Shown: positions 2,625 through 25,734 of the stretch, one piece after another
Layout: each line of letters opens with the position of its first letter
How positions within the stretch are numbered: the first letter of the stretch is position 1
NCBI GenBank assembly: GCA_034408725.1
Contig: JAWXCN010000142.1
Location: 1-35,761, forward strand
DNA: 35,761 bases
Direction: 5' to 3'
Source of the DNA: Candidatus Hydrogenedentota bacterium
GTDB lineage: Bacteria > Hydrogenedentota > Hydrogenedentia > Hydrogenedentales > SLHB01
Notes under the pieces: generated by a model
Seen by the model: only the letters and a program-made list of their open reading frames with translations
The model's database searches: none
Told to the model about the DNA's origin: nothing
Made by a program: the position numbers and the translations under genes

Positions 2625-2735
2625 CGCGCTAACCATGTCTTGAAAGAGGCGGCCGATGCAGACCAAGGCGTCGTCCTCCGGTTTCACTTTTTGCCGTGCG
2701 CGCGTGGTATCGTTTTTCCCGGCAGGGGAAAGCGT

Positions 2736-5024: not shown

Positions 5025-5727
5025 TCCCTAAATGCGCTACGAGCGGAACGTGGTCCGAGGCGACGAGCGCGCGCAAAGGTTTGTGCGTGCGCGATTCACG
5101 AATCTCCATGCCTTCGTTGACGAGGATAAAATCGATAGTCCGCATGCCCAACCAGGTGGGAACATGACGCGCGTTGATCGACTGCACATCGCGAAGGCGG
5201 CCAAGTAGAGAGCGATAGAGCGGATCGCGCCGGCCCAGATTGAAATCGCCGCAGAGAATGGACGGACCGGAGAACACGTCGTGTCCAAACCAGTCCGGTC
5301 CCAGGAGGGTTTCGATCTGCGCGTGGCGTTCGCGCGGATGCAACCCGAGATGTGTGTTCACAATATGGATCGGCGATTTGCTGTGGCCGATCTCCGCCCA
5401 CAGCGCGCCGCGGGGCTCGCGACCTTTCATGGCTGGAAGATTAGCGGATCGAACGTGCTTCATCGGGAAGCGGCTGAAGATGGCTGTGCCGTATCGGCCG
5501 TCGGTCCAACCTTCGCAGGAATGAAACAGGACGTCCATGTCCAGCGCATCGGCGATGCGCCGGGGTTGATCGATAAACCTGGACCTGGAACGTCCCGCGT
5601 CCAGTTCCTGCAGCGCAATGACATCCGCGTCGCACTCGCGAAGGATCGCGGCGATTCGGTCCGTGCAGATTTTACCATCAAGCCCGCGACAACCGCGTAC
5701 ATTGTATGTAACAACTTTAAGAGACAT
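5008..5727 (-). CDS. Endonuclease/exonuclease/phosphatase (EEP) family protein
   Basis: TYNV, DVIALQE, NTHLG, CGDFN, IDFI and SDHVP catalytic motifs. Confidence 0.92.
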   Translation of the reverse strand: MSLKVVTYNVRGCRGLDGKICTDRIAAILRECDADVIALQELDAGRSRSRFIDQPRRIADALDMDVLFHSCEGWTDGRYGTAIFSRFPMKHVRSANLPAMKGREPRGALWAEIGHSKSPIHIVNTHLGLHPRERHAQIETLLGPDWFGHDVFSGPSILCGDFNLGRRDPLYRSLLGRLRDVQSINARHVPTWLGMRTIDFILVNEGMEIRESRTHKPLRALVASDHVPLVAHLGINVKK

Positions 5728-5781
5728 GTCTGCTCCTTCCGGAACCGCGCTTTCCTCGGTATACGCCGCGCTAAAGCGCTC
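5572..5781. repeat. Diverged direct repeat, copy 1 (3' tail of the phosphodiesterase gene plus 5' ~52 codons of the EEP gene)
   Basis: Aligns by eye with 8640-8851, e.g. CCGCGACAACCGCGTACATTGTA and TTAAGAGACATGTCT shared. The upstream part encodes ERFSAAYTEE..PEG versus ERLRNAYTNE..SEG. Confidence 0.88.
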
Positions 5782-5879
5782 CGTTCAGCGAATGCTCTTG
5801 AATAGAAGCTCACGAGGTGACGAAAGCCGGGCTGGCTTGCACGATAACCCGATCGCGGGTGTGTCTAATTTTGGCTTAG

Positions 5880-6932
5880 TCAATAACTATAGACTTCCCA
5901 CTTCCGGCTTGAATAGTAATATCGTGCGGCGTAGTTTTCTTTACTGGTTTTAAGGTAGTTGTTCACCCAGTTGATTCTCGTATCGTGCCGGGCTGTTCCG
6001 TGCTTTTCGTTCGTATTGAATCTATTCCACCACACTGACCGTCCGCCAACCTCGCCGTTCATGGCGCCGCCAGCGTTACGATAGAGACCTAAAACTGTGT
6101 ACCAATCGGAAATAGTTGCGTAATCGTGATTATATATCTCGATCGAGATATAACGGTCCAACCCCGGCCTGTCCTTAACAAGTACTGTGGTCAGTTCAAT
6201 GATCGTAAGAAGGTTGTTGGGATTGTTCACCTTAAGGTCATATTTTTTAGAAATTGCCGGATGTAATAGCCAATGAATAGCTGACATGTTCCAATTTGAA
6301 AGCGCGATGGACAGGCAGTCCGCCGTCGGTTTTGCGCCACGTTTATGCAACCATTCGAGCACGTCAAACACATCCTTGTTCCGTGTAGAGCCGCATGCAG
6401 AGTGGAGCAAGCTATAATTTGATGGAAATTCATCGCGTCCTTCGTAATGAATGAGAGCGGCGACCGATCCCTCCTCAGCCGCACCGTAAGCGCTTCTATA
6501 TGTTTTATCGAACCAGGCATTAGTGAGCTTCTCAATTTTGGTGAGCAGTTCCAAGGCCTCGCGGTAAGCAGGCGCTTCGCGACCGGTAGCGTTAATGTAC
6601 TTCGTAAGATATTTCGTCCCTTTTGTTCCAAATTCCAGCGAAGCCGAGGCATCGGGTTTTGCCGAATATGCGCGCGCATATGCGGAGCCTAGACGAAGAT
6701 AGTATTCGACCGGAAGCGACCCAGACAATTGCGATTCCAATTTCTCGACCTTACTTAATGCCTCGGCAGATTTCGTCCATTCGCCATTCTTTGCGTATCC
6801 TTCGGCTTCAATAATATGCTTGTCAGCCAGAATTCCCGGATCGGTAATTCCTTGAGAATATGCGACGCAAATTGCCACGTGAAAGAGCAACCACTTTCGC
6901 CCAGCCCAGACGCGTTGATCAATCAGCCTCAT
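5880..6932 (-). CDS. Exported hypothetical protein with a TPR-like N-terminal region and possible degenerate ankyrin-like repeats
   Basis: 350 aa ORF with SD AGGAGGTG and a hydrophobic N-terminus. Helical repeat-like region ends YINATGREAPAYREALELL, followed by AAEEGS / SLLHSAC / DVLEWLHKRGA / LSIAL..AIHWLL segments. Visibly more AT-rich than the backbone. Domain calls are tentative. Confidence 0.6.
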   Translation of the reverse strand: MRLIDQRVWAGRKWLLFHVAICVAYSQGITDPGILADKHIIEAEGYAKNGEWTKSAEALSKVEKLESQLSGSLPVEYYLRLGSAYARAYSAKPDASASLEFGTKGTKYLTKYINATGREAPAYREALELLTKIEKLTNAWFDKTYRSAYGAAEEGSVAALIHYEGRDEFPSNYSLLHSACGSTRNKDVFDVLEWLHKRGAKPTADCLSIALSNWNMSAIHWLLHPAISKKYDLKVNNPNNLLTIIELTTVLVKDRPGLDRYISIEIYNHDYATISDWYTVLGLYRNAGGAMNGEVGGRSVWWNRFNTNEKHGTARHDTRINWVNNYLKTSKENYAARYYYSSRKWEVYSY

Positions 6933-6946
6933 CGAAATCGCACCTC

Positions 6947-8287
6947 CTACTTGATTAAACCGAATAAATTTCCGATTCCGATGGCGTCAACCGCCGCTCC
7001 AAACACATCTGCCAATTGGGAATGGTTTTCGGCGTAATGGTATTGGCCGCCAGTTTCATTGGCGATACGGCGTAAGTCGCCGGCCGCGGCAGAACCTGGC
7101 GAAATGCCAAGGCCGACAGTCTCGTGACGAAAGGCAAGGCCCTTCTGCTTTAATTCCGCCAACACTTGCGCAACATTTCCGCAGGTATCGTCACCATCGG
7201 CCAGAAGTATGATCGCGCGCGCATTGGGTTTTGACGACGCGTTCTTCTGCATGAAATTGGCTGCTATGGATAAAGCGGACCCAAGAGGAGTACCACCATC
7301 GGCTCGCATTCCCCCTATGAATTGAGTGAGCGCGGCTTTGTTTGTCGAAAATCCGACAGTAGCAATTGTTGGACTACTGCACTCACCGGTAAACGTGAGA
7401 ACAGCAACCTCGGTGCTGCCAAGCCCGACGCGGTCCAGCGCGGCGGTTGCGGATCGTTTGGCGGCTGCAAGCTTTTCGCCCTGCATACTTCCGGAAACAT
7501 CAATGACCAAGAGGAGCGACGTTTGATAGGAAGCGTTCTTGTTTGCCCCCGATTCAGGTTGCGAACCGCCCGTTTTCCCTGTGGATGTGCCCACTTTAGG
7601 ACTGTCGAAACCAATCAAATCGGCAATTCTACCGTCGGCCGCTTTTGGAGACGTCGAAACCGTGCCGCTTTTCGACATTTTTGATTCTACTTGATCCGGT
7701 GCCCCTTGCGACTTTGTTTTCGTAACTGTTTCTTTTGAGCTTTTTTTAACACCTTCTTCCGTCTGTCCGCCTTTGGTCGGCGACGATTGCTGGTCGGGTT
7801 GCTTTGTCATCGACTCCGGATTTGTCGAGGTAGGCTTCGCGTTCTTGCCTGCACTGGGGGAAAGGATTTGGTCCCACGCGATTGTTCTGCTGTCTCTGCT
7901 CAGGCGAAAAGTAACAGTCGGCGGTTCAACAGTTACGTCTTTGAAATGGCTCGCCTTTCCGAAACTGTCCCAGGACGTGTTGGACGCTTCGCCCGGTTTC
8001 AAGGTGGATCTAATAAAAGCTTCCGCCGGACCGGTACGCGTTGCGCCGTTTACCAACGTATAAGTCTTCTTCTTTATGGCAACATCGTAAAGCGTTAAGT
8101 CACTCTTGTTTTCAATACGCCACGTCGCCGAAACTGCATTAGGTTGTTTATAATAAAGAATAAGGATTTCTTTTCCGATTCCATCCTTAATACTGTCGTA
8201 TTTGGCCCATGGGACATCTTGTGCGGCGGCATTCACAGAAATTACGCCCATAGACGCAATAAATAAGAAACGAGTTACGCGATTCAT
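6947..8287 (-). CDS. Secreted protein with C-terminal von Willebrand factor A (VWA) domain
   Basis: Signal peptide ending NAAA-Q, S/T/K/P-rich linker, complete MIDAS (DVSGS, GGTPL, LADG). AGGAGG lies upstream of ATG 8287. Confidence 0.88.
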   Translation of the reverse strand: MNRVTRFLFIASMGVISVNAAAQDVPWAKYDSIKDGIGKEILILYYKQPNAVSATWRIENKSDLTLYDVAIKKKTYTLVNGATRTGPAEAFIRSTLKPGEASNTSWDSFGKASHFKDVTVEPPTVTFRLSRDSRTIAWDQILSPSAGKNAKPTSTNPESMTKQPDQQSSPTKGGQTEEGVKKSSKETVTKTKSQGAPDQVESKMSKSGTVSTSPKAADGRIADLIGFDSPKVGTSTGKTGGSQPESGANKNASYQTSLLLVIDVSGSMQGEKLAAAKRSATAALDRVGLGSTEVAVLTFTGECSSPTIATVGFSTNKAALTQFIGGMRADGGTPLGSALSIAANFMQKNASSKPNARAIILLADGDDTCGNVAQVLAELKQKGLAFRHETVGLGISPGSAAAGDLRRIANETGGQYHYAENHSQLADVFGAAVDAIGIGNLFGLIK

Positions 8288-8639
8288 TCGCGACGGGCCT
8301 CCTGCTTCAGTTTTCCATTTCCGGTTAATAAATCTACAAAACTTGGGCACACCGACGATCACACGCGAACGAATAGGGTTCTAGAAGGTCTCCGTTCAGA
8401 CCTCACTCAATGATAAACGAGCGAGGAGTATTCCATATATAGTACACTGCGCTTACAGCATGACCGGTCTCGAATCGAAGAATATCACTCAATGTTGCCC
8501 GCGTCAAGGTAGAGACAGAGAACCGAAAATCCGCGAAGAAATTGCGTCCGTAAAATTCCAGTCGAGATCTGCACCTCGTACTGTCTCGGGGAAGTGAATC
8601 AAAACGTGAAGCAACTTCCCCGTAAATACTTTTCTCTTT

Positions 8640-8796
8640 GATAAATTTCGATCGCAAACGCCCCGCATCTAGCTCTTGCAACGCGATGTCGTCTGCGTCG
8701 CACTCACGAAGAATCGCGGTGATACGGTCCCGTGCAAATCCTTCCATTCAGACCGCGACAACCGCGTACATTGTACGTAACGACCTTAAGAGACAT
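8640..8796 (-). pseudogene. Truncated, frameshifted 5' fragment of the EEP gene (part of direct repeat copy 2, 8640-8851)
   Basis: Reads MSLKVVTYNVRGCRGLNGRICT, then a +1 base, then DRITAILRECDADDIALQELDAGRLRSKFI, after which similarity to 5008-5727 ends. Confidence 0.9.
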
Positions 8797-10579
8797 GTCT
8801 CGTACCTTCGGATATTATTTTTTCGTTTGTATACGCGTTGCGTAACCGTTCTTGAAGATCGTGCAGGCGCAGGCGACGGGCCTTGTCGTCGGTCAGCTCC
8901 TTCCACATCTCCGCGCAATGTTGAGGAACGATAATGAATGGCGTCATCTCCGAGGAGGACGGTCCTGTGTGGCCGCCGCGTTCATAACTGTAAGATATGG
9001 ACGGCACATGCTTCCCGCGATAGCCAAACAGAATCACGTCGCCCGCGGACGGCATGGCGGCCCAGCGCTTGAACTCCGCAAGGTTCTCGTGAATCACGTC
9101 CGCGATATCGGGGGCGACATTTCGAAAGCTTGCATGATTGCTAATGTCGTACCAGAGTCCCGCTACGCCGACCTTTGCGTTGTTCGGCTTCGATCGTGCG
9201 AGTGCAAACCCAATTCCGGGATGGTCCGCGAGCGCATTGACGAATTCTGGACAACACTCAAGCCAGTCTTCCAAAAACAGCCGTTCTTTCCGATCCAACA
9301 AATATAGATGCGCGACTGGTCCGGTTGAAATGAGGTGAACGAGCCGATCCTTGTCCGCGCCATTTTGGGAGGTCCGCTGATTTCGCGCAGGCTTCAGGAA
9401 CCAGCGGTAAATGGACTTCAGCACGCCCGGAAATACGCCGCTGATATTCTCCGCGTGTTCCGCTTGCCATTGAATACGGCTCCGCGCATAGCGGCCATGT
9501 TGACCGCGCAAAAATCGGCCGCGCCGGATTCTTTCAGTCTTATGGCGCGAATGGGCATGCGCGCGAAGTTCTTCAGTCTCGGCGTACATCGACTGGAACA
9601 ACGAATCGAAATGGCGGTCCGGGTCCTGGTTGAAGACTTCCTGAAACGGGAGCGTGTCGGTTTGGCCGTGATCGCTCCACACATAGAAATCATAGTCGCG
9701 GATGCCGAGTTGTTTTGCATGTTCAATCGTGCGCCATACGCGTTCGATAGATGCGTCAATACCGCGCAGGGTCCAGAATGCGTACGCACTGGTGGGGCCA
9801 CGATGATGGGCATGCTCATCATAGGCGATATGATTCAGGTATATCGGTCCCGTGCCGCGATAAATATCGAGAATCGCCGCTAATGTGGCGATCTCGCGGC
9901 AAAGCACCACCGTGGCGATGCGGGCCACGACAAAGCGGAACTCAAGGTATTTGTTCTTTTCCGTGAACAGGGCGCACACGAGATCATAAATCGCGACCAT
10001 GAGTTCCATGAGCGCGTAAAACATGATGCGCGCGATGAGCACAAACTGAAAGACCGCGAATAGCGCCAGCGAAAGCCAGGTGGTCGCGATGTTCACGCTG
10101 GGATGAAAAAGTTTTGCAAACGTGAGAATGGTATTCGTGGCGCCGCCGCAAAATAGCGCGCAATACGCCGATCCGCCCGATAACAGCCCCGGATACGGCG
10201 CGACGGTGCGTTTGACCCGGTCTTCCAGATCGGCCGAACAACGCACCGTATTCAAACTAACGGCGCTATCCGTCCGTTTGTCGTACCAGAAGAAGCCGGG
10301 GACGTCATCATTGTTTCCGTAAAACAGTCCTGTTTGGAATGCGCCGGTAGACGTTGGCAGCATTGATTGCCAGGAACCCTTGATGCCGTGTCCCGCGCGG
10401 AGGTAGCGCCGGAGAAACGGCAGTTTTCCTTTCACGATCGCGCGGTTGAAATTTTCGTGGGACAAACCGTCGATTTGGATGAGCACGCACGAACGCGAGT
10501 CGCGCACGTCCTGCTGTTCGGTTTTGAGGCCAAGGAGCCGCAACCGCCGCGACTCGCTTTTTTTCCCATTTGGTTTCAT
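8786..10579 (-). CDS. Alkaline phosphatase superfamily / type I phosphodiesterase-like protein with an internal membrane segment
   Basis: LIQIDGLS, PTST nucleophile region, YDEHAHHRGP, WSDHGQ and GGHTG metal-binding motifs, plus a hydrophobic stretch around aa 165-205. Confidence 0.85.
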   Translation of the reverse strand: MKPNGKKSESRRLRLLGLKTEQQDVRDSRSCVLIQIDGLSHENFNRAIVKGKLPFLRRYLRAGHGIKGSWQSMLPTSTGAFQTGLFYGNNDDVPGFFWYDKRTDSAVSLNTVRCSADLEDRVKRTVAPYPGLLSGGSAYCALFCGGATNTILTFAKLFHPSVNIATTWLSLALFAVFQFVLIARIMFYALMELMVAIYDLVCALFTEKNKYLEFRFVVARIATVVLCREIATLAAILDIYRGTGPIYLNHIAYDEHAHHRGPTSAYAFWTLRGIDASIERVWRTIEHAKQLGIRDYDFYVWSDHGQTDTLPFQEVFNQDPDRHFDSLFQSMYAETEELRAHAHSRHKTERIRRGRFLRGQHGRYARSRIQWQAEHAENISGVFPGVLKSIYRWFLKPARNQRTSQNGADKDRLVHLISTGPVAHLYLLDRKERLFLEDWLECCPEFVNALADHPGIGFALARSKPNNAKVGVAGLWYDISNHASFRNVAPDIADVIHENLAEFKRWAAMPSAGDVILFGYRGKHVPSISYSYERGGHTGPSSSEMTPFIIVPQHCAEMWKELTDDKARRLRLHDLQERLRNAYTNEKIISEGTRHVS

Positions 10580-10592
10580 CTGATCGCTCTCG

Positions 10593-11843
10593 CTAAATTT
10601 GTGAGAATGACCGGCTGAAGTTTTCCCACACGGTAGAAAAATAGCTTTGGATCAATCCAAACGACATCGTATCGCTCTTGAGCCTGTGCCGCGGTTCGAG
10701 TTTAAGTGCGCGGTATTTTCGCTGAAGTTTTGCGGCCAGCTTCGGCATGTCATAAGCCTGGGCAGTTTCCCGCGCGCCCGCTGACCATTTCGCGGCTTCT
10801 TCGCCGTTGATCGCGTGGAGAATTGCATCGGCGAATTCTTCCTCGGTCGCGTCGGCGCGCAGCAATCGTCCATTGACATTGTCCACGACGACATCGCGGA
10901 CGGCATCGGCATCGCGCGCGACGACGGGCGTTGCGCCGGCCATTGCCTCGACAAGGACCATGCCCTGCGTTTCCGTAGTCGATGCGAAAAGGAAGACGTT
11001 TGCCGCGGTATATAGGTTGATCAAATCCTCGCCCGTGACGGTGCCAACAAACCGGACCTGGCTGTTTTTGTCCGCGCTTGCCTGGTCCTTCAATTCATTT
11101 TCGTGTTTGCCGCTGCCCGCCAAGACGAACACCGCATCGGGCCGCTGTTCCAGCGCTTTGAGCGCGGCGCCCACGAGAAACTTCAGATTTTTTTCGTGGG
11201 CAAGCCGGCCGACATATAAGAGAATGGGTTGCTCCGGCCCAATACCCAGGCTTTCGCGCGCGGCCTCTGGTTTCGCGGCCGCGTATGCAGTCTGTTCTAT
11301 GCCGGACGGCAGTATGTCGATTCGAGAAGTGACTCCGCGCTGGCGCAACTGTTTTTTGACGTCCCGTGTCGGCGCGATGACAAGATCGCACATATTGCAA
11401 AAATCGTTGGCGTGCTTGAGAATCGTGCGCACGGCGGTGTCTTCGCCAATCGGAACGTAGTGCGTGTACTTCTCGTATTGCGTGTGATATGTGAATATCA
11501 GGGGCACCTTGTCGCGCCGCGCCATGTTGAGTCCCGTTTCTCCGAGTAGGAACGGGTGATGGACATGGACGATATCGAACCCTTCGTACTGGAAATCCGT
11601 CACTGGTTTTGTCGAGACCAATGGCAGACTGAACTCGGTATTGTTGAAATTGCTGAGTGAAAGAATCCGCCGTACGTCTTCGTTGTCTTCGAGCGAGCCA
11701 TTGTATTGCGGTGCGTAGATGACGAGACGGTTTCCCAGCGCTTTCAAATGTTCGTAGTACAGGTGTACGGAACGCGACACCCCACTGACGAACGGGAGGT
11801 AGGTATTCGTGAAAAATGCTACGTGGTAATCCGTGTGTGGCAT
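10593..11843 (-). CDS. GT4 family glycosyltransferase (diacylglycerol glucosyltransferase-like)
   Basis: FTNTYLPFVSGV, HVHHPF, TYHT, YVGRLAHEKN and ETQGMVLVEAM. GGAGG precedes ATG 11843. Confidence 0.9.
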   Translation of the reverse strand: MPHTDYHVAFFTNTYLPFVSGVSRSVHLYYEHLKALGNRLVIYAPQYNGSLEDNEDVRRILSLSNFNNTEFSLPLVSTKPVTDFQYEGFDIVHVHHPFLLGETGLNMARRDKVPLIFTYHTQYEKYTHYVPIGEDTAVRTILKHANDFCNMCDLVIAPTRDVKKQLRQRGVTSRIDILPSGIEQTAYAAAKPEAARESLGIGPEQPILLYVGRLAHEKNLKFLVGAALKALEQRPDAVFVLAGSGKHENELKDQASADKNSQVRFVGTVTGEDLINLYTAANVFLFASTTETQGMVLVEAMAGATPVVARDADAVRDVVVDNVNGRLLRADATEEEFADAILHAINGEEAAKWSAGARETAQAYDMPKLAAKLQRKYRALKLEPRHRLKSDTMSFGLIQSYFSTVWENFSRSFSQI

Positions 11844-11970
11844 ATAGGTAAAGTCCTCCGTATAGAAAACGAAGGAATGGACTTCCGGTATTCCGCAGCC
11901 CGAAATCTTCACAGGCGGTTAAAGCCGATTCAGTGTTGATTGGTTGCCCGGAATCTGATGCTGCGTGTAG

Positions 11971-12054
11971 GAAAATTGTAAGCAGGATTGTAAGCCGAAT
12001 TCTGTGAAGTCTTGCGACCCCGACGGCCATTCCTCTGCGACGCGCGTCACCGCG
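11971..12054 (-). repeat. Duplicated, diverged 3' fragment of rnpB (att-like remnant)
   Basis: Matches 14516-14601 at about 79 of 87 aligned columns by hand alignment, in the same orientation. Confidence 0.93.
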
Positions 12055-12183
12055 TAGGCAATGTCGTGGGTAAGAGTTTTCAAAACCGTACTGGCGAATA
12101 TGCGATGAAGCGAATGAGCGAAGCAGAATTGGCTCAACGGTCACTACAAAATACTTTGACCAATTCGGATAGTGCACCACTCA

Positions 12184-12212
12184 TTGACTTGGGGAAATAC
12201 TCACTCTATCAT
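12184..12212 (+). promoter_or_regulatory. Sigma70-type promoter of the three-gene operon
   Basis: TTGACT-17 bp-TATCAT, followed by SD GGAGGGAG and ATG 12234. Confidence 0.7.
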
Positions 12213-12233
12213 GCCCCAGGGGAGGGAGAATCT

Positions 12234-12944
12234 ATGTCCATTTGGGACTTCGTAAACTTTGGCACAATTTGTATTTTTCTCGTTGCGATTGTCCATGCGA
12301 TTCTCGCCATTATTGTCTCCACGCAGCGTCGTTCACTCTTACGAAAGCTCGAAGGGGATATGCGTCGAGTGGTGGGTAACGAGAGCGAACTCACAACCTC
12401 TGAAATCAACGAGTTAGATGCAGATGAGCGAATAGCGAGCTTCTGCCAAGATGCAATGATTTTATTCAAGGAACGACCCGAACTCGCACGAAGCAAAAAC
12501 TTTACGGATTTTCAGCGGCAAAAACCCCACGAAAAAATTGCGCGTGTGGAAAAGCTGTACAACGTAATGCGCACTGTCATCGAGGCTTATCCACTTCTCG
12601 GAATCATCTTTACGCTTTTCGGACTTGCTTCGAGTCTTTACGTGGAACCCAAAAGTGACCCACCAAGCAATGGCGGGGTAGTAGTAGCGCACGCTGGAGC
12701 ATCTGCGAAAACAGTAGACGTTGACTCGGTTACGGCAAAATCAAGTCGTATCATCGACAATTTTGGAAAATCGATTACCGCGACTTTGCTAGCTCTCATA
12801 TTCGCTGTTATCGCAATGGTGCTAAACGCATTCTTCTTCGAATTGCAATTTGACCGACTCAGTGGCCACGGGGAAAGAGTTGCGAACTGGCTCAACTTCG
12901 CGATCACCACCTCGCGACCTCTAGCGAAAGACGCCAATACATGA
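12234..12944 (+). CDS. MotA/TolQ/ExbB proton-channel family protein
   Basis: One N-terminal TM, a cytoplasmic domain, then YPLLGIIFTLFG and GKSITATLLALIFAV TM pair. Real start inferred at ATG 12234 rather than 12012. Confidence 0.8.
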   Translation: MSIWDFVNFGTICIFLVAIVHAILAIIVSTQRRSLLRKLEGDMRRVVGNESELTTSEINELDADERIASFCQDAMILFKERPELARSKNFTDFQRQKPHEKIARVEKLYNVMRTVIEAYPLLGIIFTLFGLASSLYVEPKSDPPSNGGVVVAHAGASAKTVDVDSVTAKSSRIIDNFGKSITATLLALIFAVIAMVLNAFFFELQFDRLSGHGERVANWLNFAITTSRPLAKDANT

Positions 12945-13780
12945 AACGGCGGCCACGAATTGTCCTTCAGCTCGCTGCGCTACTCGATTTAGCTCTCAAT
13001 ATCATATTCGTGCAGGCAATACAGGTGCAGACATCGATTCATGATCATGTCGTGACGGCAGATGGAATAGCGAGTGAAGCAGAGAGTAAGGCCGATGAAG
13101 CGGAACGTGAGAAGCAGGGTGCGCAAAAACTCAGAGACCAGTTCAGCATTGGGATTGAAACCAAAAATGCACGTATTTCCGAATTAGAGGGCGAGCTAAA
13201 AAAGCTGGCATCACAAGTAGATCAGTACAGCGCGACGCTCAAAGATCGTGATGAAAGCCTTGCAACTACAAGGGAGCGGACCGCCCGTCTCGATGATGTT
13301 CTAGCGAGCGTACTAAGACTTGATACCGATGGGGTCACGCGCGTGCTTGAGCAGTTGCCTTCCGGAACTGCTAAACAACTCGATGAAAAGCTTGCCTCCG
13401 TACACGCGCAGCCAGACGCGGGCACACTCGTGAGAATGCTGGGGGAATACATGGACATTCAGAGTGTAGTTGACGTATGGCGACTATATATCGCGCAAGA
13501 CGGTACATTCAGCTTGGAGATACGGGATGAACGCAAGTTCGAGTCCGAATTTGCAACCGTGGATGATGACTTAAAGGCGCTTCTGATAAAGCATTCCCAA
13601 GAGAGCAGGCCGCGTAGGGGGCCCGTAGTGATTTTCTGTTCGTTTCACAGTAATTCGCCCTGGAAAAGCCGCCGCCTGCTCAATTCGTCGAAACAAGCCG
13701 ATGTAGTGGGTGCGCTGAATGACTTACATTCCGGTTCCGAGTTTATCTTCGCAAATCAGGGCATAAATGACAATTTTTGA
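12941..13780 (+). CDS. Single-pass protein with ExbD/MotB-like Asp-bearing TM, long coiled coil and C-terminal globular domain
   Basis: MKRRPR basic N-terminus, LAALLD(16)LALNIIF TM, heptad-rich region at about aa 40-125, ATGA overlap with the upstream gene. Confidence 0.65.
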   Translation: MKRRPRIVLQLAALLDLALNIIFVQAIQVQTSIHDHVVTADGIASEAESKADEAEREKQGAQKLRDQFSIGIETKNARISELEGELKKLASQVDQYSATLKDRDESLATTRERTARLDDVLASVLRLDTDGVTRVLEQLPSGTAKQLDEKLASVHAQPDAGTLVRMLGEYMDIQSVVDVWRLYIAQDGTFSLEIRDERKFESEFATVDDDLKALLIKHSQESRPRRGPVVIFCSFHSNSPWKSRRLLNSSKQADVVGALNDLHSGSEFIFANQGINDNF

Positions 13781-13789
13781 GAGGACGCA

Positions 13790-14188
13790 ATGGGTAAATT
13801 AGTTGGTTTTATCCTCTTCGCGATTGTAGTTGCAGCCGTAGTTGCAGCCATTGTAGTTGCGGCCATAGTTCTGGGGAAGCATTTCGGCTTCGGATCGGGC
13901 TCGTCTTCTAACGCGAGCGAGTCGGCAGAGGGTGGCACGGCAACAAGCACAAATTCCCAAGGGGAAAGGCCACTCAAAGTAAGAATCGAAGGCGGGTCAT
14001 ATCTGAGTACAGATGGCGACAAGCTCTCGCTCGACCAAGTAGCTGAACGTGCAAAGCTGGTACCAGCCGGTACCGGTCCGGCCGTACTTGTTGAGCGTGG
14101 CGATACTTCAACCGCGATAGCGGAACAGGAATTGGAAGCAATATTGCGGTCAACGGGTATTTCGATGTTCTACGGGACGAGTGAATAG
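13790..14188 (+). CDS. Membrane-anchored protein with a G/S linker and small ExbD-periplasmic-like domain
   Basis: SD GAGGA; hydrophobic N-terminus; LKVRIEG..LSLDQV..VLVERGD..ELEAILRSTGI resembles the ExbD/TolR periplasmic pattern (tentative). Confidence 0.55.
   Translation: MGKLVGFILFAIVVAAVVAAIVVAAIVLGKHFGFGSGSSSNASESAEGGTATSTNSQGERPLKVRIEGGSYLSTDGDKLSLDQVAERAKLVPAGTGPAVLVERGDTSTAIAEQELEAILRSTGISMFYGTSE
13826..13864 (+). repeat. Three copies of GTAGTTGC(A/G)GCC within the TM-coding region
   Basis: Read directly at 13826, 13838 and 13853; encodes VVAA-VVAA-I-VVAA. Confidence 0.8.
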
Positions 14189-14192
14189 CAAG

Positions 14193-14474
14193 CTATTCCG
14201 CTTGTCCAAAAAGCGGGGCGCTAAAACGGTAGAGCTCGGCGAACCGCTGCGCGTTGTGCAAACGCTACCAAGCATCGCGAATGTGTTCGGGCTCAAATGA
14301 ATGACGTCTTTGCGGGCTCCACTCGTGTACGCCATTCACCGCGCACTCCGGCTCGATCGCGGCCTGCCCGTCTCTGTACTTGGCGACCCCATGAGCCATG
14401 GCAAGCATTTCCATGCAATAGGATGTTTCGAATCCTTCGATCAACCGCGTGACACCGTCAAATCGCTCGCGCGT
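14193..14474 (-). pseudogene. darG: Decayed C-terminal fragment of a DarG-like antitoxin
   Basis: Hand translation: TRERFDGVTRLIEGFETSYCMEMLAMAHGVAKY..AVNGVHEWSPQRRHSFEPEHIRDAW*RLHN. This resembles the DarG C-terminal pattern RFxxVxxLIEGFE(S/T)PYGxELLATVHWV..WSxRK..F..HI..AWxRL as I recall it. It has an internal TAG and no macrodomain. Confidence 0.72.
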
Positions 14475-14520
14475 CTACAGGCGACTGCCGGGCCACATAT
14501 TACGCGCACGAAACAGAAAA

Positions 14521-14890
14521 TGTAAGCAGGCCTGTAAGCCGAATTCTGTCTGAAGTCTTGCGACCCGAGACGGCCATTCCTCTGGGACGCGCGTCACCGC
14601 GCGCCTCAAGCTTCCTACCCGGGAGCGGAGCGGGCCACTCCATAGCTCCCCTATTTGGAATTGCTCCGGGTGGGGTTTGACAAGCCAGCCTGTTGCCAGA
14701 CTGCTGGTGCGCTCTTACCGCACCATTTCAACCTTACCGGCCACGCGCGAGGCGTGACGTAGGCGGTGTGTTTTCTGTTCCACTTTCCGTCGGGTTTCCC
14801 CGCCTTGGCGTTACCAAGCACCATGCCCTGTGGAGTTCGGACTTTCCTCGATGCCCTTGCGGACACCGCGGCCGTCCGGCCTGCTTACTT
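14521..14890 (-). ncRNA. rnpB: RNase P RNA (bacterial type A)
   Basis: Minus strand shows GAGGAAAGTCCGAACTC, AGTGGAACAGAAA, GGTGCGGTAAGAGCGCACC and ACAGAATTCGGCTTAC. P1 pairing GTAAGCAGGC/GCCTGCTTAC closes the ends. Confidence 0.97.
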
Positions 14891-14894
14891 GAAG

Positions 14895-14903
14895 ATTGTA
14901 CCA
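14895..14903 (-). promoter_or_regulatory. Extended -10 promoter of rnpB
   Basis: TGgTACAAT lies a few nt upstream of the P1 5' strand. Confidence 0.6.
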
Positions 14904-15012
14904 TTTATGTTTGGGCTACACGATCATCTGTGCCTCTCACATGTTGCTATTATACAAGCATAACCGTATTGCGATTAGTTTCCGGTCGAGATGAATTCTT
15001 AAAGAGGATAGC

Positions 15013-16458
15013 ATGACTGAACCGAGCACTCTGTCCGCCCGCAATCTCAAAAATGATCTTGTCCTGCCGACGCTCCTGTTTGCCGCGTTGGGCGCGATGT
15101 CGTGGGCGGTGCGGGGGAGTTCGGGATATGGCGGGTCGGACGGGTGCATCTTTGCCGGCGTGTTGTGGGGCACGGCGTGGTGGTTTATTGCTCGGGAACC
15201 GCGGGCCGTGCAGTCGCGGCGATATACCTCGGGCTGGATCATTCTGGCGATGATGGTGGGGTTCGGCATCTCAGGTAACCGGGGATGGGCGCAATGGTCT
15301 TCGATGTTCGAGGGGCGGCTGCAAACGAACACGGCCGCGGGCGAGTATGTTTCGATTTTGCCGGTGTACGGGTTTGTGTGGTTGTTTATCGCGGGCGTGC
15401 CGTGGGCGGGCATTGGCGCGTGCATGCTGGCGTGGTGCGGTGACGCGTGGAAGCCACGCGGCTCGCGCGAGTGGGTGATATGGTGCGGGAAATGGGTGTT
15501 GCGCATCGGGTCCGGATACGCCGGCGTCAGGCTGGCGCAATACCTGTTCGTCGAATATCCGAACGTTTTTCTGCCGTTGTATACCTTGCATGAAGGCCGG
15601 TACAACGACCTAGAGGCAAACTCGAATCTAGGCCGGATGATCAACGACAACCGTGCGGCAATCACGCACCTCGGCCTTTACCTTGGGTTCCTCGCGTTTG
15701 AATTCGCGCGGCGCGATTGGAAAAACGTTTTACTGATTGCGGCCGTCGGGTTGATCAATGGCGTTGGTTGGTCGGTGCAGCAAAACTGGATGTGGGCCAA
15801 CGAGCTTTGGCCGAACGTTGCGTTCAACTGGTGGCGTAGCTGGGAATCCTGCGGCGGCATCAGCATTGGCGTTGCGTTGGGAGTAGCGTACTTCCTTGTG
15901 AACCGGCCCGTAACGGACGCCGAGCGGGCGAAATTGGGCGAACAACTTACCAACCGGTGGCCGAACCTCGAGCGGTTCGGCGCGTACTTCGGGCTGCTGA
16001 TCGGCGTGGGGTTTTCGATCCGCAACGGTTTGAAAGGTTGGGCCAACCTCTACCTGGGCAACGAAGACTATTGGTCTGGCGTACTTTGGAAAATTATCGG
16101 ACCATTGATGATTCTTGGTTTTATTCTGATGGTGCTGAGGATTTTGATGCGCTGCGTGCGGGTCGAATCAACGGACGATATGGACATGGTGGACGCTGTG
16201 GATATGCGAGATACGGAAGCTGCTGCTGTTCAATCCAAAACCCACGATCAAAAATCAAAAATGAATTTGGTTTTTCCCCATGCCTACGTGATTACCTGGC
16301 TCGTGCTTATCATCATGAATATTTTGGCGCAATTGGCTACCAAGTCATTCGGGCACTGGCCTGAAACGGTTTTCGCATTCTATTACGCGGCGTTGTTCGT
16401 GTTCACCGGGATGATCATTCGTCATTATCATAAGATGAAAAATGCGAGCAGAGAGTGA
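15013..16458 (+). CDS. Polytopic membrane protein of unknown function
   Basis: 481 aa, Trp/Gly-rich, about a dozen hydrophobic segments, SD GAGGA. Confidence 0.8.
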   Translation: MTEPSTLSARNLKNDLVLPTLLFAALGAMSWAVRGSSGYGGSDGCIFAGVLWGTAWWFIAREPRAVQSRRYTSGWIILAMMVGFGISGNRGWAQWSSMFEGRLQTNTAAGEYVSILPVYGFVWLFIAGVPWAGIGACMLAWCGDAWKPRGSREWVIWCGKWVLRIGSGYAGVRLAQYLFVEYPNVFLPLYTLHEGRYNDLEANSNLGRMINDNRAAITHLGLYLGFLAFEFARRDWKNVLLIAAVGLINGVGWSVQQNWMWANELWPNVAFNWWRSWESCGGISIGVALGVAYFLVNRPVTDAERAKLGEQLTNRWPNLERFGAYFGLLIGVGFSIRNGLKGWANLYLGNEDYWSGVLWKIIGPLMILGFILMVLRILMRCVRVESTDDMDMVDAVDMRDTEAAAVQSKTHDQKSKMNLVFPHAYVITWLVLIIMNILAQLATKSFGHWPETVFAFYYAALFVFTGMIIRHYHKMKNASRE

Positions 16459-16490: not shown

Positions 16491-19400
16491 TCATTCTTCA
16501 GGCTTATACCTTCCTTGTGCGGACGCGATTTCGCCCGGGGTCACGGTAACTTCTTTATCCTTGGGTTTTTTCCAGCCGGTCAGCGGTTTGAATTGAACAG
16601 TGTGCTGTCCAGCCGGAATGCCGGATAGGGTGTCGCCGCTTTTCTGCCATGCGCCGCCATCAAGGCGCCAGCGGGCTTTATCCTGTCGCGCTGCCTTTGG
16701 TTTGATAGTGACCTTCACCGAACCAGTCAACTCGGCATTACAATCCGAAAAGCCACTCAAGTCCGTTAATGCGAGATCCGAAGGAGCTCCCAATCCACGG
16801 GAGAGTCCAGCGATTCCATCCAGAGCTTCGATATTCAAAAAAGTTATGCGAACCCGGCCATCGAAGAACATTTCGATTTGAAACGAGTTGGAAGTGTTGA
16901 GCCCATCTTCGCGCACTTCGTCCCATGTGGCCACCGCGCGGTCCGCCAACTGCATATAACGGATCGGTTTCTGGTTGGTCGGGTCAAGATCGTCGAAGTG
17001 GCCGGAAATGCGCGGAATCGCGTCGTGGTCATACAGCGACTCTATCGCCGATCCGTCAGGAATTCCAAAGGTAATGTTGCCGTTTGCATTGATGAAAAAG
17101 CCGGTGTAGGTCACGCCGTAATAAGTGAACTCCTTGCCATCGGCCAAACTGACCTCGTAAGAGGCATCGCCTTTCAGTCCCACGGTGGACGACAGATTGG
17201 TATGCGCGCTGGCGTCGGTTGGAAACTCCGTGGCCGGCGTCTGGCACGCGCCGTAGTAGCTGATGGAACCGTCTGGCGTGAACAAAAAGGACCGGTTCGC
17301 GAGATCGTTGTCGCTGTCAAAAAACCATTCTGAAAGGTAATCGCGTTTCGCTGTTGTGTCGAAGTCGAAGCACGAGCCCGCATCGTCTGCGAGCGTAGCG
17401 TTCCCCGCGGAATCCGTCGCCTCGATTTTGAATCGATACGTTGTAGAGGCCGTTAACCCGGTTAGGTGGGCGTGATGCTCGACGACGTGTAAACCGCCAC
17501 CGCGAAATTGGGTCAGCTCACCACAGGCCGTACCAAAGCGCGCCACCGTATCTGTTGGACCCGTCGTGGTATATGAAATCACCGCTGAGCTGCTGGTGAT
17601 ATTCGTTATCTGGACATTACTGACGGCAGGCGGTGTGCAATCCACCAGTGCCGATTCTTCATCGACCGCCGGTTGTCCGTCCGCGTTGCTGGCGTCGTTG
17701 TAAGTAACCGTGATTGAGCCGTCATTCACGACTTCCAGAATGCCATTTGCCCCCGGCGCGCCGGTGCTCGTTGCTATGGCCCCCGAAAACAGGCCGGTGG
17801 CTGCCCCCGTTTCATCCAACGACACCGTTTCGGCATCGCCTGTTGAACTGGTGACGCCGACGGTGGCAGTCCCGTTGCCTGCGAGGTCTTGATCGCGCAG
17901 GTTGAAAGTGACTGTCGTGTCGCAGCTAATGTCCGCGGGAAAAATGCGAACATTCCCGGTGGAATCAGGCAAGCCGGCGTTCCATGCGAACAACGCGAAA
18001 TCCTGATCGAGCGCTCCGCCGATATTTGGCACGCCGTCCGCGGCGATGTTAAATGCTTTCACGCTTACGGTGATTGGTCCGCCCGAGGGATTCTCCAGGA
18101 AGACAGCTTCCAGTGTATCTATGCGGTCCAGGTTGCCGCCCGTTTCGGAAAAGCCGGTGGTGAAGACATTGCCTTTGTACAGCGTCCCGTTTTCCGTCAC
18201 GCGTAGATCAAGGTCGTTGACCAGTTGTATGCCCGAGCCGGGGACGCCGGGAACATCGGTCCATGCCAAGGTAATCTTGATAGGCAGGCCGGCGACAATC
18301 GGGGACAGCGTAATGTTAAATTCGTCGCCGGTGCTCGTTAGCAATTCCGATTGGTCCAGCGAATAGAGCGCGGTTTTCATGCTGGCGAGCGTTTCGAGAT
18401 TGACGGCGCCCCAGCCTTGGTGCACGTTTGGAATGTTCGCCAACACGCCACCGTTTCCATCGCTGCCGCCGACAAGGTCAGTGGCCGTGTTGGTGAGGAC
18501 GGCGCGAATCATCGCGGGGCTCGGAGTGTTGGTGTGGCCCATGGCCGATAATTGATCGCGAAACATTTCGTGGATGATGATGCCCGCGCCGCAGGCTACT
18601 GGGCAGGCATGACTCGTGCCTGTGGAACGGCAGTAGTCGGTTTGGGTGGTCGGCCAATACTTGCTCGAAACACCTCGACCGGTGTATCCCTCGACGGTGG
18701 GGGCAGCGCCTTGCACGTGCGTACCGGTGGCGACTACGGTAACGCCGAGACGCCCGTCGGTTGTCGGGCCACGACTGGACGTAATGTAGACGTCGCGAAT
18801 GTTGTTTGACCCCGACGGTCCGGAATTGCCGCCATCAAAACCATCGGCGTCGCTGTTCTCGTGAGAGCCGACGGAGACGACGTTTTTGGCGTTTGCAGGT
18901 GACCATGTGGTGCTTAAGTCGGGTCCGTTGTTGCCCGCGCAAAAGAAGTGGCTGGTCTGTTGGTTGCCGGGTTCATCGGGGTCGGAATCGCGCACCAACG
19001 CGTCGAATTCCGCGGCATTGGCGTTGTATGCGCCGTTGATCGCGGAGCCCCACGAGTTATTGGAGAAGGTAGCGCCGGCATTCTGCGCCAGTTGCGTCAT
19101 CCCGGTGTAGGTGTTAATGCCGATTTCAGTTGAACCGCTGTCATCTGGAAATATCTTGGAAGCATACACCGAAGCCATGGGCGCCACGCCTTGTCCCAGC
19201 AGGTATCCGGCGGAATCCGTCGTACCGGCTGTCGCGTTGCCCATAATGATGGCAGCGTCGAGGTGGCCGTGCCCCCCGCGGCTGGCGCCGTCGGCATCAT
19301 TTGTAGCATTGAAGATTCCCACGATGCGGCCGAGTATGTCAGTGTGCGCGGTGCCTGGCAGATTCGTGGCGATACCCTTATCGATTCCATCGTCGAACAG

Positions 19401-20153
19401 GTGGACCGTGATGCCTGTGCCGCCACTCAGCCCTTCGGCGCCGAGCCATGCGGTGTAACCAGGACCGAAGGGTGTAGTGGCGCCGGGTTGATACTGGCCG
19501 GCCGCGGTTTGTGCCGCGCGTTCACCTCCGAGTATGGGAATTACGTCTTCCTCAATGGTGAACACGCTATTGATTGCCGCTGCGTCCGAAACTTTGGAAA
19601 GGGGAAGTGTGACGCGCGTTTCGTTCCAGCCCATGATCGTTTCGCGGTCTGAGCGGATGCGATGGCCTTTGGCTTCGAGCGTTTTTGCGGCCAGTTCGCC
19701 ATAACTCAGTACAATGGCCTGGATCGAAGTCTCTTCCGATTTTTGCTGGCGCGCCTTTGCAATTTTTGCCGCGAGCGCGATATTTACTTTCGCGGCATCC
19801 GGGATAGTTCCGACCCACGAAACGTTGCCGGCGCTCTTTACGCTATCGAACGTGTTCGGTTTCATCGTCACCAAATACGCGAAGTCGGCGATGTAATGGT
19901 GCACCGTAGCGCCGGTCGCTCGAAGCCCATCCAACCACTCCGGTTGAATCGGGCCCGAAAACTGTACGAGCACTAGCGTCGACTGATCGCCGAGTCCGGT
20001 CTTTTGCAAGGCCTCCGCCGTCAGCGGAATGGCTTTAGCTTTCACGTCGATGCCGTTCAAGATCACGGCTTGTGCGTGGGAGACATGAACGAAAAGCAGG
20101 GCGAGAAAAAGCCAGGGAGCAGAGTACTTCGGGGTGTTACGCCGGTGTCGCAT
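16491..20153 (-). CDS. Secreted S8 (subtilisin-like) serine peptidase with multiple C-terminal beta domains
   Basis: Signal peptide, propeptide, triad FDDG / GHGH / GTSHACP, oxyanion AGNNG, TLAWTD..VNDLDL domain, then FN3-like, nidogen-like and PEGA-like regions (last three tentative). Confidence 0.92.
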   Translation of the reverse strand: MRHRRNTPKYSAPWLFLALLFVHVSHAQAVILNGIDVKAKAIPLTAEALQKTGLGDQSTLVLVQFSGPIQPEWLDGLRATGATVHHYIADFAYLVTMKPNTFDSVKSAGNVSWVGTIPDAAKVNIALAAKIAKARQQKSEETSIQAIVLSYGELAAKTLEAKGHRIRSDRETIMGWNETRVTLPLSKVSDAAAINSVFTIEEDVIPILGGERAAQTAAGQYQPGATTPFGPGYTAWLGAEGLSGGTGITVHLFDDGIDKGIATNLPGTAHTDILGRIVGIFNATNDADGASRGGHGHLDAAIIMGNATAGTTDSAGYLLGQGVAPMASVYASKIFPDDSGSTEIGINTYTGMTQLAQNAGATFSNNSWGSAINGAYNANAAEFDALVRDSDPDEPGNQQTSHFFCAGNNGPDLSTTWSPANAKNVVSVGSHENSDADGFDGGNSGPSGSNNIRDVYITSSRGPTTDGRLGVTVVATGTHVQGAAPTVEGYTGRGVSSKYWPTTQTDYCRSTGTSHACPVACGAGIIIHEMFRDQLSAMGHTNTPSPAMIRAVLTNTATDLVGGSDGNGGVLANIPNVHQGWGAVNLETLASMKTALYSLDQSELLTSTGDEFNITLSPIVAGLPIKITLAWTDVPGVPGSGIQLVNDLDLRVTENGTLYKGNVFTTGFSETGGNLDRIDTLEAVFLENPSGGPITVSVKAFNIAADGVPNIGGALDQDFALFAWNAGLPDSTGNVRIFPADISCDTTVTFNLRDQDLAGNGTATVGVTSSTGDAETVSLDETGAATGLFSGAIATSTGAPGANGILEVVNDGSITVTYNDASNADGQPAVDEESALVDCTPPAVSNVQITNITSSSAVISYTTTGPTDTVARFGTACGELTQFRGGGLHVVEHHAHLTGLTASTTYRFKIEATDSAGNATLADDAGSCFDFDTTAKRDYLSEWFFDSDNDLANRSFLFTPDGSISYYGACQTPATEFPTDASAHTNLSSTVGLKGDASYEVSLADGKEFTYYGVTYTGFFINANGNITFGIPDGSAIESLYDHDAIPRISGHFDDLDPTNQKPIRYMQLADRAVATWDEVREDGLNTSNSFQIEMFFDGRVRITFLNIEALDGIAGLSRGLGAPSDLALTDLSGFSDCNAELTGSVKVTIKPKAARQDKARWRLDGGAWQKSGDTLSGIPAGQHTVQFKPLTGWKKPKDKEVTVTPGEIASAQGRYKPEE

Positions 20154-20279
20154 CGGATGACCCTCTGGACAGTAAGTAAGGTTGGCTGCGCTGAAGTGGC
20201 AGCGTCGCATATTTGCAACGGTAACACAACGAATTTCGCGGCGCGAATGTTAAGCCTCGCCCGGCATGGAACCTGGACG

Positions 20280-20942
20280 CTACGGAGTGGAATCGTCGTG
20301 GTATTTGCGGACGCGGTGGGTGACGGGAAAGGCTTCGTCGGCTTCCTGGGTGCGGCCTTTCGTGAGGAGTAGCGCAATGCTGAAAATGGTGATCGCGGTC
20401 ATGACGGCGGCGGTGAGTTGATGGGGCAGGTAGCTGGAGAGATTGGCGCGCCACAGCGAGTCGCCCATGAGAAAGAGCCAGACAGCGCAAACGAATACGC
20501 CGAGTATCTGATTGATCTTGGATGGCGAGAAGGGGTAGCCGGCGGTGATGTCGAAGAGATTAAAATTTTGGCGGTTCATGGCGCTTTTGTATAGCGGGCC
20601 CATGATTTCATCTTCGAGGAGGTCGACCTGGATTTCCCAGTTGCGCTGCCAAGCTTTGCTTCCCCTGTTGACGAAGTACCATGCGACGGAAAAGGTGAGT
20701 CCGAGGCACGCGACGACATAGGCGGACTCGAAGGAATGTTGCGGGTCTTTCGTAAGGAGGAAGTAACCCGCGAACATACCGGCGATGAATGTCCAAAAGT
20801 AGCTGGCGCGTTTCCAGTAGAGGTCTGTTTCAAACTTGCGGATGTCGAGGGCCTGTTTGAGTGCTTCCCTCTGGCGTTCGCTGGCGTTGCCTTCGCCCGT
20901 GAAGTGATTAATGTAGCCGGTGCGCGTTGTTTTATCGGGCAT
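20280..20942 (-). CDS. Small four-TM membrane protein of the ALDIRKFExxLYWKR family (RipA/octameric membrane protein-like)
   Basis: ALDIRKFETDLYWKRASYFW, NRGSKAWQRNWE, GPLYK and FSPSKIN motifs. The family name is from memory. Confidence 0.6.
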   Translation of the reverse strand: MPDKTTRTGYINHFTGEGNASERQREALKQALDIRKFETDLYWKRASYFWTFIAGMFAGYFLLTKDPQHSFESAYVVACLGLTFSVAWYFVNRGSKAWQRNWEIQVDLLEDEIMGPLYKSAMNRQNFNLFDITAGYPFSPSKINQILGVFVCAVWLFLMGDSLWRANLSSYLPHQLTAAVMTAITIFSIALLLTKGRTQEADEAFPVTHRVRKYHDDSTP

Positions 20943-25299: not shown

Positions 25300-25359
25300 T
25301 TTTAATATGCGGTACGGTCCGCGAGTCAGGAGGCAGCCGGCAAAAGATAATAATTAGCG

Positions 25360-25522: not shown

Positions 25523-25734
25523 TACGCATTGCTGCCCCCTGAAACGGTTTCCAGGCGGCGGCACTCATGCGCAACTTCGCGAGAAGGGTTGCAGCGGGGC
25601 AGGCGGACTATTTGCCTGCATACTCGCCTACTTTTCTCCCCTTTTTTCACGCACGTGAAACCAGATTGATGCACGGCGACCGTGCATCGTGGCAGCGAGA
25701 AACATCGTGGATGTTTTATCGCAGGGGAATGACA

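Follow-up and report, generated by a model that had tools for sequence, protein, structure and literature searches.

What do three small genes encode that lie between two copies of the 3' end of an RNase P RNA gene (rnpB), and how did they come to be there? The genes, called g1, g2 and g3 here, form a cassette on a contig of 35,761 nt (JAWXCN010000142.1, assembly GCA_034408725.1) from a Candidatus Hydrogenedentota bacterium; the whole of this stretch is referred to as the window. The original prediction, made from the sequence alone, saw in them a stand-alone MotA/ExbB-like motor carried by an island, with a possible role in defense. Our analysis favors, with a probability of about 0.7, a self-contained membrane motor, ion-driven and of the ExbB-ExbD/TolQ-TolR type, that was horizontally acquired at rnpB.

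The three genes and their predicted products

The region is laid out as follows, with the basis of each assignment in parentheses (TM, transmembrane).

11973-12056, minus strand: second, displaced copy of the final ~84 nt of the RNase P RNA, an att-like left repeat (repeat families D4, D12 and D3; pairwise alignment)
12184-12212, plus strand: sigma-70-like promoter match, 22 nt upstream of the g1 start (10/12 positions)
12234-12944, plus strand: g1, 236 aa, putative channel (A) subunit of a divergent ExbB/TolQ type; three TM helices, the loop between TM2 and TM3 holding a variable insert (PF01618, hhalign, PDB profile search)
12941-13780, plus strand: g2, 279 aa, putative single-pass B-type subunit with Asp16; predicted helix at 8-125, then a short helical stretch, then an alpha/beta head at 178-275 (alignment, AlphaFold2)
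13790-14188, plus strand: g3, 132 aa, predicted TM anchor without Asp, conserved Gly-rich motif, disordered linker and TolR/ExbD-fold head, 62-129 (AlphaFold2, Foldseek, hhalign)
14189-14516, no strand: spacer of 328 nt between g3 and rnpB with nothing recognizable (no Pfam or Rfam match)
14517-14601, minus strand: right repeat copy within the 3' end of the intact rnpB (direct-repeat search, alignment)
14519-14887, minus strand: RNase P RNA gene of bacterial class A, target of the integration (RF00010 at 319.9 bits over model positions 1-367)

All three open reading frames (ORFs) are intact and co-directional, in agreement with the three-gene operon first proposed. The g1 stop and the g2 start share 4 nt (ATGA), and g3 starts 9 nt past g2. 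For g1, ATG 12234 is the best start, because homolog alignments begin at residues 1-10 of the form that begins there, a purine-rich stretch precedes it and longer frames would start within the rnpB repeat. The operon had also been credited with a promoter of its own. The sigma-70-like site upstream of g1 exists and is plausible by position, yet it does not rise above chance, with 1 such site found in 11800-15100 where shuffled sequences lead one to expect 2.8 +/- 1.5. Contigs from public microbial-mat runs, one of which may be the source sample, span 11807-14489, agree with the window throughout and cross both junctions; among the runs listed as carrying the sequence, none is of RNA. Among these contigs, which drop rare variants, there was no joint skipping the cassette and no empty-site or excised form.

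Sequence comparison at the family level supports g1 well as a divergent ExbB/TolQ-type channel subunit of the MotA/ExbB superfamily. A phmmer search of 1.84 billion cluster representatives returned 43 proteins at E<=1e-3, 13 of them at <=1e-10 and g1 itself alone at <=1e-30; the family alignment holds the window protein and 29 of the 42 other matches, 13 short or partial ones being excluded. All 30 aligned members match PF01618 (MotA_ExbB) at E<=0.01, the best at 4.6e-12, and the window protein does so at E=1.1e-4 to 1.8e-4 (21.7-22.4 bits). Aligned by hhalign to canonical ExbB from this genome and its relatives, the family scored a probability of 97.2% (E=3.2e-11, 174 columns), with the Gly/Thr motif of TM2 and the Thr/Gly motif of TM3 in register; both results bear out the initial reading of g1 as ExbB/MotA-like. 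The g1 profile also finds the ExbB chains 7ajq and 6ye4 in the PDB (E=0.004). Within the family, NCBIfam models for exbB2, tolQ and exbB match 3, 3 and 2 of the 30 members, in sets that may overlap, and each of two ZorA models matches 1; on the three window proteins NCBIfam gave nothing specific. A word-index protein search with g1 returned g1 itself as its sole match, and a single-protein genome search of 40 relatives gave weak matches to canonical ExbB genes only. What sets the family apart from ExbB is a variable, low-complexity insert between TM2 and TM3. The invariant residues G123, T127, F177 and T184 are retained in the window protein.

The second protein, g2, was compared with 24 full-length homologs from the surveyed loci described below. 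Residues L14, D16, F23 and W180 are invariant, D16 being present in 24/24 aligned homologs, and the N-terminus carries an Arg/Lys cluster followed by the Asp-bearing TM helix, as in ExbD and TolR. The AlphaFold2 model (mean predicted local distance difference test, pLDDT, 82.6) consists of one helix of ~118 residues (8-125), three short helices and the alpha/beta head; the length of the coiled region differs among homologs. Together with the 4-nt overlap, these features match the partner originally described as translationally coupled, with Asp16 in its membrane helix and a long coiled coil. In structural comparison the g2 head reached Z 7.2 against TolR (5by4) and Z 6.8 against ExbD (8p9r_B, 72/73 residues aligned). 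Foldseek on the g2 model gave E=0.012-0.022, with no match at E<=0.001, and leads from the ESM Atlas point to ExbD-bearing clusters. Searches of the PDB with the g2 and g3 profiles found no significant match (MotB 6ykp, E=0.15; GldM 7sax, E=0.57).

The third protein, g3, carries the clearest ExbD-type head. Its AlphaFold2 model (mean pLDDT 78.4) has a TM helix at 3-31, a disordered linker and the head at 62-129, where block pLDDT values reach 87-96. Foldseek ranks 1-5 for this head are TolR (5by4) and ExbD (8vgc, 8vgd, 8p9r), each with probability 1.00. The target template-modeling score (TM-score) is 0.70-0.72 for the four ExbD rows and 0.51 for TolR, E-values are only 0.008-0.04, and no match of the g3 model fell at E<=0.001. 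The root-mean-square deviation is 2.8-2.9 A for the ExbD rows, with 8vgc_A giving a TM-score of 0.72 and 2.8 A over 74 columns. By sequence, hhalign aligns g3 with ExbD across the periplasmic domain (E=3.8e-4), and 2/14 g3 homologs match PF02472 (best 1e-4). The alignment of 14 homologs, read by eye, has no conserved acidic residue in the TM helix. An anchored protein with an ExbD-like domain and no TM Asp is what the original prediction had described, and the structure comparison it had pointed to places TolR and ExbD in the top five, if only at the E-values given.

Complex prediction suggests that the g3 head docks on the g2 head. For g2 120-279 and g3 55-132, the interface score ipSAE was 0.67, and the best of three controls reached 0.00; the mark used is reached by 58/80 solved complexes and by 2/110 mismatched pairs. 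Contacts agreed between runs to at least 97%, with a partner pLDDT of at least 85, and the predicted interface joins g2 235-245 and 274-275 with g3 66, 68 and 103-113. ExbD and TolR dimers are among the solved structures, and the passing score may reflect likeness to those, which keeps it short of proof. The arrangement fits the earlier idea that the ExbD role is split over two proteins, with the ion-binding helix on g2, the clearest ExbD-type head on g3 and the two heads predicted to bind each other.

The build of g3, in which a disordered linker connects a TM helix to a head of ~70 residues, also recalls TonB and TolA, and g3 could be imagined in their place, passing energy from g1-g2 to outer-membrane transporters or tethers encoded elsewhere. 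Homolog linkers are rich in Pro, Glu and Ser, and in one planctomycete genome a g3 homolog is unlinked from g1-g2, as tonB can be from exbBD according to the accessible part of PMC12204202 (Mol Biol Evol 2025). However, the g3 head matches ExbD and TolR and not TonB C-terminal domains, g3 and its homologs match no TonB or TolA family, and the flanking genes scanned include no TonB-dependent receptor. Nor does the g3 TM helix, inspected by eye, hold a conserved Ser/His pattern of the kind given in the accessible part of PMC12204202. We consider such a Ton-like role unlikely.

Insertion at the 3' end of rnpB

The two copies of the 84-nt repeat have the same orientation and differ by two small indels and a handful of mismatches. 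The left copy matches RF00010 weakly (19.4 bits), with only the two ends of the model covered. Between the repeats lie the three genes and the 328-nt spacer alone. The att-flanked island of the original prediction is thus a 2.46-kb cassette between direct repeats taken from the rnpB 3' end. Its GC content is 50.7%, compared with 56.1% for the window, and the GC content at third codon positions (GC3) is 0.49-0.51, compared with 0.67 and 0.71 in the flanking genes. The g2 profile (E<=1e-5) found nothing in the four sister species of the genus that were searched (0/4). Because of the rnpB repeat, the low GC3 and the lack of a match in these four species, the cassette is taken to be horizontally acquired, by insertion at the rnpB 3' end.

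The same flank differs between sister genomes. The distance from clpB (a chaperone gene at the left end of the window, assigned by Pfam) to rnpB is ~0.85 kb in genome G004, ~2.5 kb in G001 and 11.9 kb here, and in neither G001 nor G004 does the cassette lie between the two genes. G001 (L055 6620-7912) has a 127-nt rnpB duplicate followed by two small overlapping ORFs (158 and 72 aa) and then the intact rnpB. No family was found for these two ORFs; the 158-aa ORF was considered as a PIN toxin and the idea was dropped, with no PF01850 match there and no PDB match. G004 (L056 5843-6690) has a HicB-like ORF (6g1c, E=7.8e-5) and a small HicA-like ORF (1whz, E=1e-5) beside rnpB. The inserts in G001 and G004 make the rnpB 3' flank a variable insertion site in the genus. 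No paper on rnpB as an integration site surfaced among the best matches listed in a literature search, and the insertion points to a little-noted integration hot spot.

Not every detail first proposed for the island held. A darG-like relic had been placed next to the cassette, but Macro (PF01661) has no match on the contig at E<=1, in a search that did not cover DarT. The spacer (14189-14518) holds four ORFs of 51-74 aa without a family, none with a Pfam match at E<=0.1, and has no Rfam match.

A second stretch at this site, 2640-11972 (~9.3 kb), lies between clpB and the rnpB duplicate and is missing at the site in G001 and G004. It holds six genes, for a YfhO-like membrane protein, an endonuclease/exonuclease/phosphatase, a 350-aa protein without assignment, a von Willebrand factor A (vWA) protein, a type I phosphodiesterase and a family 4 glycosyltransferase. 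Phosphodiesterase and family 4 glycosyltransferase genes also lie near an inverted rnpB fragment in genome G002. The stretch may be an older insertion.

The proposed motor and the points that weigh on it

By analogy with its family, g1 would form the channel ring, presumably a pentamer, into which two N-terminal helices of g2 with Asp16 would insert. Protonation and deprotonation of Asp16 would then drive a rotation or piston-like motion of g2 relative to g1. We infer this 5:2 stoichiometry and ion drive, as well as the membrane topology, the target and any phenotype, from likeness to known motors and from prediction. The positive-inside rule would place the rest of g2 in the periplasm, where its helix runs ~95 residues past the membrane and, if helical throughout, would form a stalk of ~14 nm ending in the alpha/beta head. 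Anchored separately by its Asp-less TM helix, g3 would reach the height of the g2 head through its flexible linker, and its TolR/ExbD-fold head is predicted to dock there. The output would probably be mechanical force or rotation exerted on a target in the periplasm or outer envelope that is encoded outside the cassette.

Several observations weigh against this reading. The window g1 falls narrowly under the Pfam gathering score (22.4 versus 22.9 bits), and of the PF01618 matches in the whole genome at E<=0.001, the five listed are canonical genes on other contigs, g1 being absent. No Pfam family is assigned to g2, and PF02472 (ExbD) is matched by 0/24 members at E<=0.01; hhalign places the g2 TM helix on the ExbD Asp segment over 18 columns only (E=6e-4, probability 28%). 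Integrase-core (RNase-H-like) and actin-like folds outrank ExbD and TolR on the g2 head (Z 8.0-8.8), so the modeled fold of this head is not specifically ExbD-like. Matches to PF00589 lie on eight other contigs and none on this contig or in the island, in a search that did not extend to serine recombinases. Since neither island nor contig has a tyrosine integrase, the mechanism of insertion is read from the repeat alone. Two points concern the window copy itself. Residue 126 of g1 (12609-12611) is a Phe, a position that in 90% or more of relatives is the Gly of the TM2 'LGT' motif, and the g2 head deviates from the family consensus near a conserved Pro-Lys-Ser-Leu-Val strand. Given the Phe and the deviating head, the window copy could be impaired. 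The Phe might also affect ion conduction by this copy.

Taken further, these substitutions of near-invariant positions, together with an identity of only 17-35% between the window proteins and any relative, would fit an inert passenger whose frames are intact but whose version is decaying or non-functional. The three frames, however, are open and have lengths typical of the family, translational coupling is kept, and so are all of the invariant g1 and g2 residues named above. The g2-g3 complex prediction, moreover, was made with the window copy's own sequence. An inert cassette seems very unlikely to us, and a working motor is preferred.

Relatives, gene neighborhoods and known motors

Taking one genome per species, the locus scan yielded 38 loci, of which 37 are in metagenome-assembled genomes of Planctomycetota (Planctomycetaceae, Pirellulaceae, Phycisphaerales, Tepidisphaeraceae and others); among them is a genome of Planctomicrobium piriforme, which carries g1-g2. 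The remaining locus is labeled Nitrospirales. Its gene coordinates are identical to those of a genome placed in the window's own order. A profile search of 40 loci (these 38, the window and one genome of its own family) used profiles built in part from the same sequences. It found g1 in 40/40 loci and g2 directly downstream in 38/40, the remaining 2 ending at a contig edge; g3 follows directly downstream in 18/40, and the 4-nt g1-g2 overlap is present in 26/40. At all five own-phylum loci fetched (5/5), g1, g2 and g3 stand in a row, and no RNase P RNA lies within those fetched stretches. At E<=1e-5, the g2 profile is found in 9/135 genomes of the window's phylum, the window's genome included, and in 26/401 genomes of a Planctomycetota sample. 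From these searches, the family appears to reside mainly in Planctomycetota and a few other lineages, and it has no name.

Three loci deserve separate mention. In a Planctomycetaceae genome, a lone g3 homolog (L058 7152-7646, G135:C180, E=1.6e-23) has a Rieske-like ORF on one side and a GAPDH-like gene on the other, both identified by eye, and the g1-g2 pair of that genome has no adjacent g3. On a Tepidisphaeraceae chromosome, an ADP-ribosylglycohydrolase gene (L017 4499-5566, minus strand, E=9.7e-42) lies just upstream of the trio, a single case. In a trio genome of the window's order, two tRNA genes (L063 4537-4706, the same site as L042) lie ~170-350 nt upstream of g1 and could mark another RNA-gene-linked site.

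Elsewhere the genes stand in ordinary company. Clustering of flanking ORFs revealed lineage-level synteny only: two upstream genes recur in 12 loci, a MetW and alpha/beta hydrolase pair (metX/metW), and one recurs in 5, a class II tRNA synthetase with an anticodon domain (proS). Synteny is stable within planctomycete subclades, and no partner gene recurs across loci. A Pfam scan of 30 flanking ORFs from the other loci left 12 without a family and otherwise gave MetW, alpha/beta hydrolase, tRNA synthetase, BON, UbiD, Ala_racemase_N, DUF1501, ADP-ribosylglycohydrolase, metallophosphoesterase, POT transporter, GH127, GNAT, DUF2959, esterase, UvrA-like ABC ATPase, xylose-isomerase-like barrel, DprA and RsgA. 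Genes near g1-g2 elsewhere include a YggS-like gene and, by reading, rpsA and argG. Among the 30 ORFs, on which PADLOC was not run, there is no TonB, TolA, OmpA, flagellar, gliding or defense-named Pfam family. The claim that the module stands alone, with no TonB, TolA, OmpA or flagellar gene nearby, agrees with the neighboring ORFs scanned. In viral contigs, 68 pattern matches were seen and none was confirmed; plasmids and phages yielded no relatives.

These contexts bear on the defense role first suggested, in which a Zorya-like motor would act as an envelope sensor in an anti-phage or conflict system, the cargo of a small mobile island. The cassette does lie in a repeat-flanked insertion at an RNA gene, the same flank varies in the genus (the HicB-like and HicA-like ORFs of G004, the two-ORF insert of G001), and the family is patchy in its own phylum and in the Planctomycetota sample. 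Yet no PADLOC model matches g1, and g2 and g3 have weak coiled-coil or low-complexity matches only. The cassette encodes no effector (nuclease, NTPase or protease), g1 lacks a long cytoplasmic tail, and all of the flanking ORFs scanned (30/30) are metabolic, housekeeping or without a family. The survey of neighborhoods, first suggested as a check for enrichment in defense islands, turned up housekeeping genes at the 38 other loci, and relatives are missing from the viral contigs, phages and plasmids searched. A defense role, for which location is the argument and which the family's ordinary syntenic contexts contradict, is unsupported and in our view improbable. Equally improbable is the broader picture of a portable motor that serves as an envelope-breach sensor or conflict device and, without an integrase, targets a hot spot at the rnpB 3' end. 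If it were true, the g2/g3 head would probe the outer envelope, the motor would turn a disturbance into a change in ion flux, and rnpB would be a hot spot that in sister species holds modules resembling toxin-antitoxin pairs.

Flagella, the Ton and Tol systems, gliding and Zorya defense all run on ion-driven 5:2 motors. The cassette would be a variant of this known kind, set apart by a stalked, Asp-bearing g2 and a separate ExbD-fold g3. With ExbB-ExbD(-TonB) and TolQ-TolR(-TolA) it shares an A subunit of the PF01618 superfamily that has three TM helices and whose Gly-Thr motifs in TM2 and TM3 are in register, a single-pass, predicted N-in partner with an essential-type Asp in its helix, a TolR/ExbD-fold periplasmic head (here on g3) and translationally coupled adjacent genes. 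It differs in the ~95-residue stalk of the Asp-bearing subunit and in the larger head there, whose fold is uncertain, in the placement of the clearest ExbD-type head on a separate Asp-less protein, and in the variable insert within the TM2-TM3 loop of g1. In addition, genes for TonB, TolA, Pal or a TonB-dependent receptor are not linked to the cassette, and its proteins fall under the curated Pfam and NCBIfam equivalog cut-offs, g1 narrowly so for Pfam.

Zorya has a long cytoplasmic tail on its A subunit, and ZorB has a peptidoglycan-binding domain. The cassette resembles ZorAB in that a motor of the MotA/ExbB superfamily bears a very long helical extension and, in this genome, occurs in a mobile context, whereas its long helix belongs to the B-type subunit and is predicted to lie in the periplasm. 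PADLOC gave no Zor match at E<=1 for the three proteins, and between the repeats there are no further genes and no ZorC/D/E. Together with the lack of a long tail on g1, this agrees with the original statement that the cassette does not match Zorya. In the GldLM/PorLM motor of gliding and type IX secretion, the inner component is a dimeric shaft across the periplasm. The idea of an ion-driven motor whose inner component extends through the periplasm is all that is shared: the g2 profile match to GldM is not significant (7sax, E=0.57), g1 is ExbB-like with three TM helices and not GldL-like, and no gliding or type IX secretion genes lie nearby.

Two recent surveys describe related motors. In its accessible part, PMC12204202 reports predicted TolQ-like motors that have an Asp-bearing 'transpore helix' and a periplasmic vWA domain in one fused protein (TPH-vWA), as well as clusters from Planctomycetes-Verrucomicrobia-Chlamydiae (PVC) bacteria with a tolQ-like gene, two heterologous tolR-like genes and no assigned function. 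The cassette would resemble these in its TolQ-like ring gene, the lack of a canonical tolR/exbD, the fusion of the Asp helix to a long periplasmic output domain, the second, different TolR-like gene alongside and the occurrence in PVC-type bacteria. Set against the TPH-vWA clusters as that part describes them, a comparison by description only, it has no vWA in g2 or g3 and no Asp in g3. The MotAB survey PMC12505986 (mBio 2025), in the part accessible, reports many non-flagellar 'generic ion transporters' (GIT) of unassigned function, with adjacent A and B genes, condensed cytoplasmic domains and varied extensions, including some very large periplasmic domains. The cassette appears to fit this class broadly. 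In that part, neither a stalked, Asp-bearing B subunit nor a third, ExbD-fold protein is described for GIT, and the word 'coiled' is not in the main text.

With each variant of a 5:2 motor that came to be understood, another way of moving energy across the envelope was revealed. In this family, one protein would unite the ion-binding helix with a long stalk and a head, a separately anchored ExbD-fold protein would be its partner, and no linked TonB, TolA or peptidoglycan anchor would be needed. Its hosts, the Planctomycetota and a few other lineages, have poorly understood envelope energetics. A horizontally moved and apparently self-contained cassette of three genes and 2.5 kb is amenable to direct expression and testing.

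Other features of the window lie apart from the cassette. A cobalamin riboswitch (25346-25535, 83.1 bits) stands just upstream of an ORF at 25567-26613. On the minus strand, a 1239-aa ORF (16491-20210) has only fn3 and purple-acid-phosphatase N-terminal domains in Pfam and, by eye, a subtilisin-like Ser motif; it may encode a large secreted protease. Also on the minus strand, 20280-20942 encodes a member of the octameric membrane protein family 8xMP (PF24838, E=1e-37), and this gene adjoins a xylose-isomerase-like barrel gene and a response-regulator/PAS/GGDEF gene.

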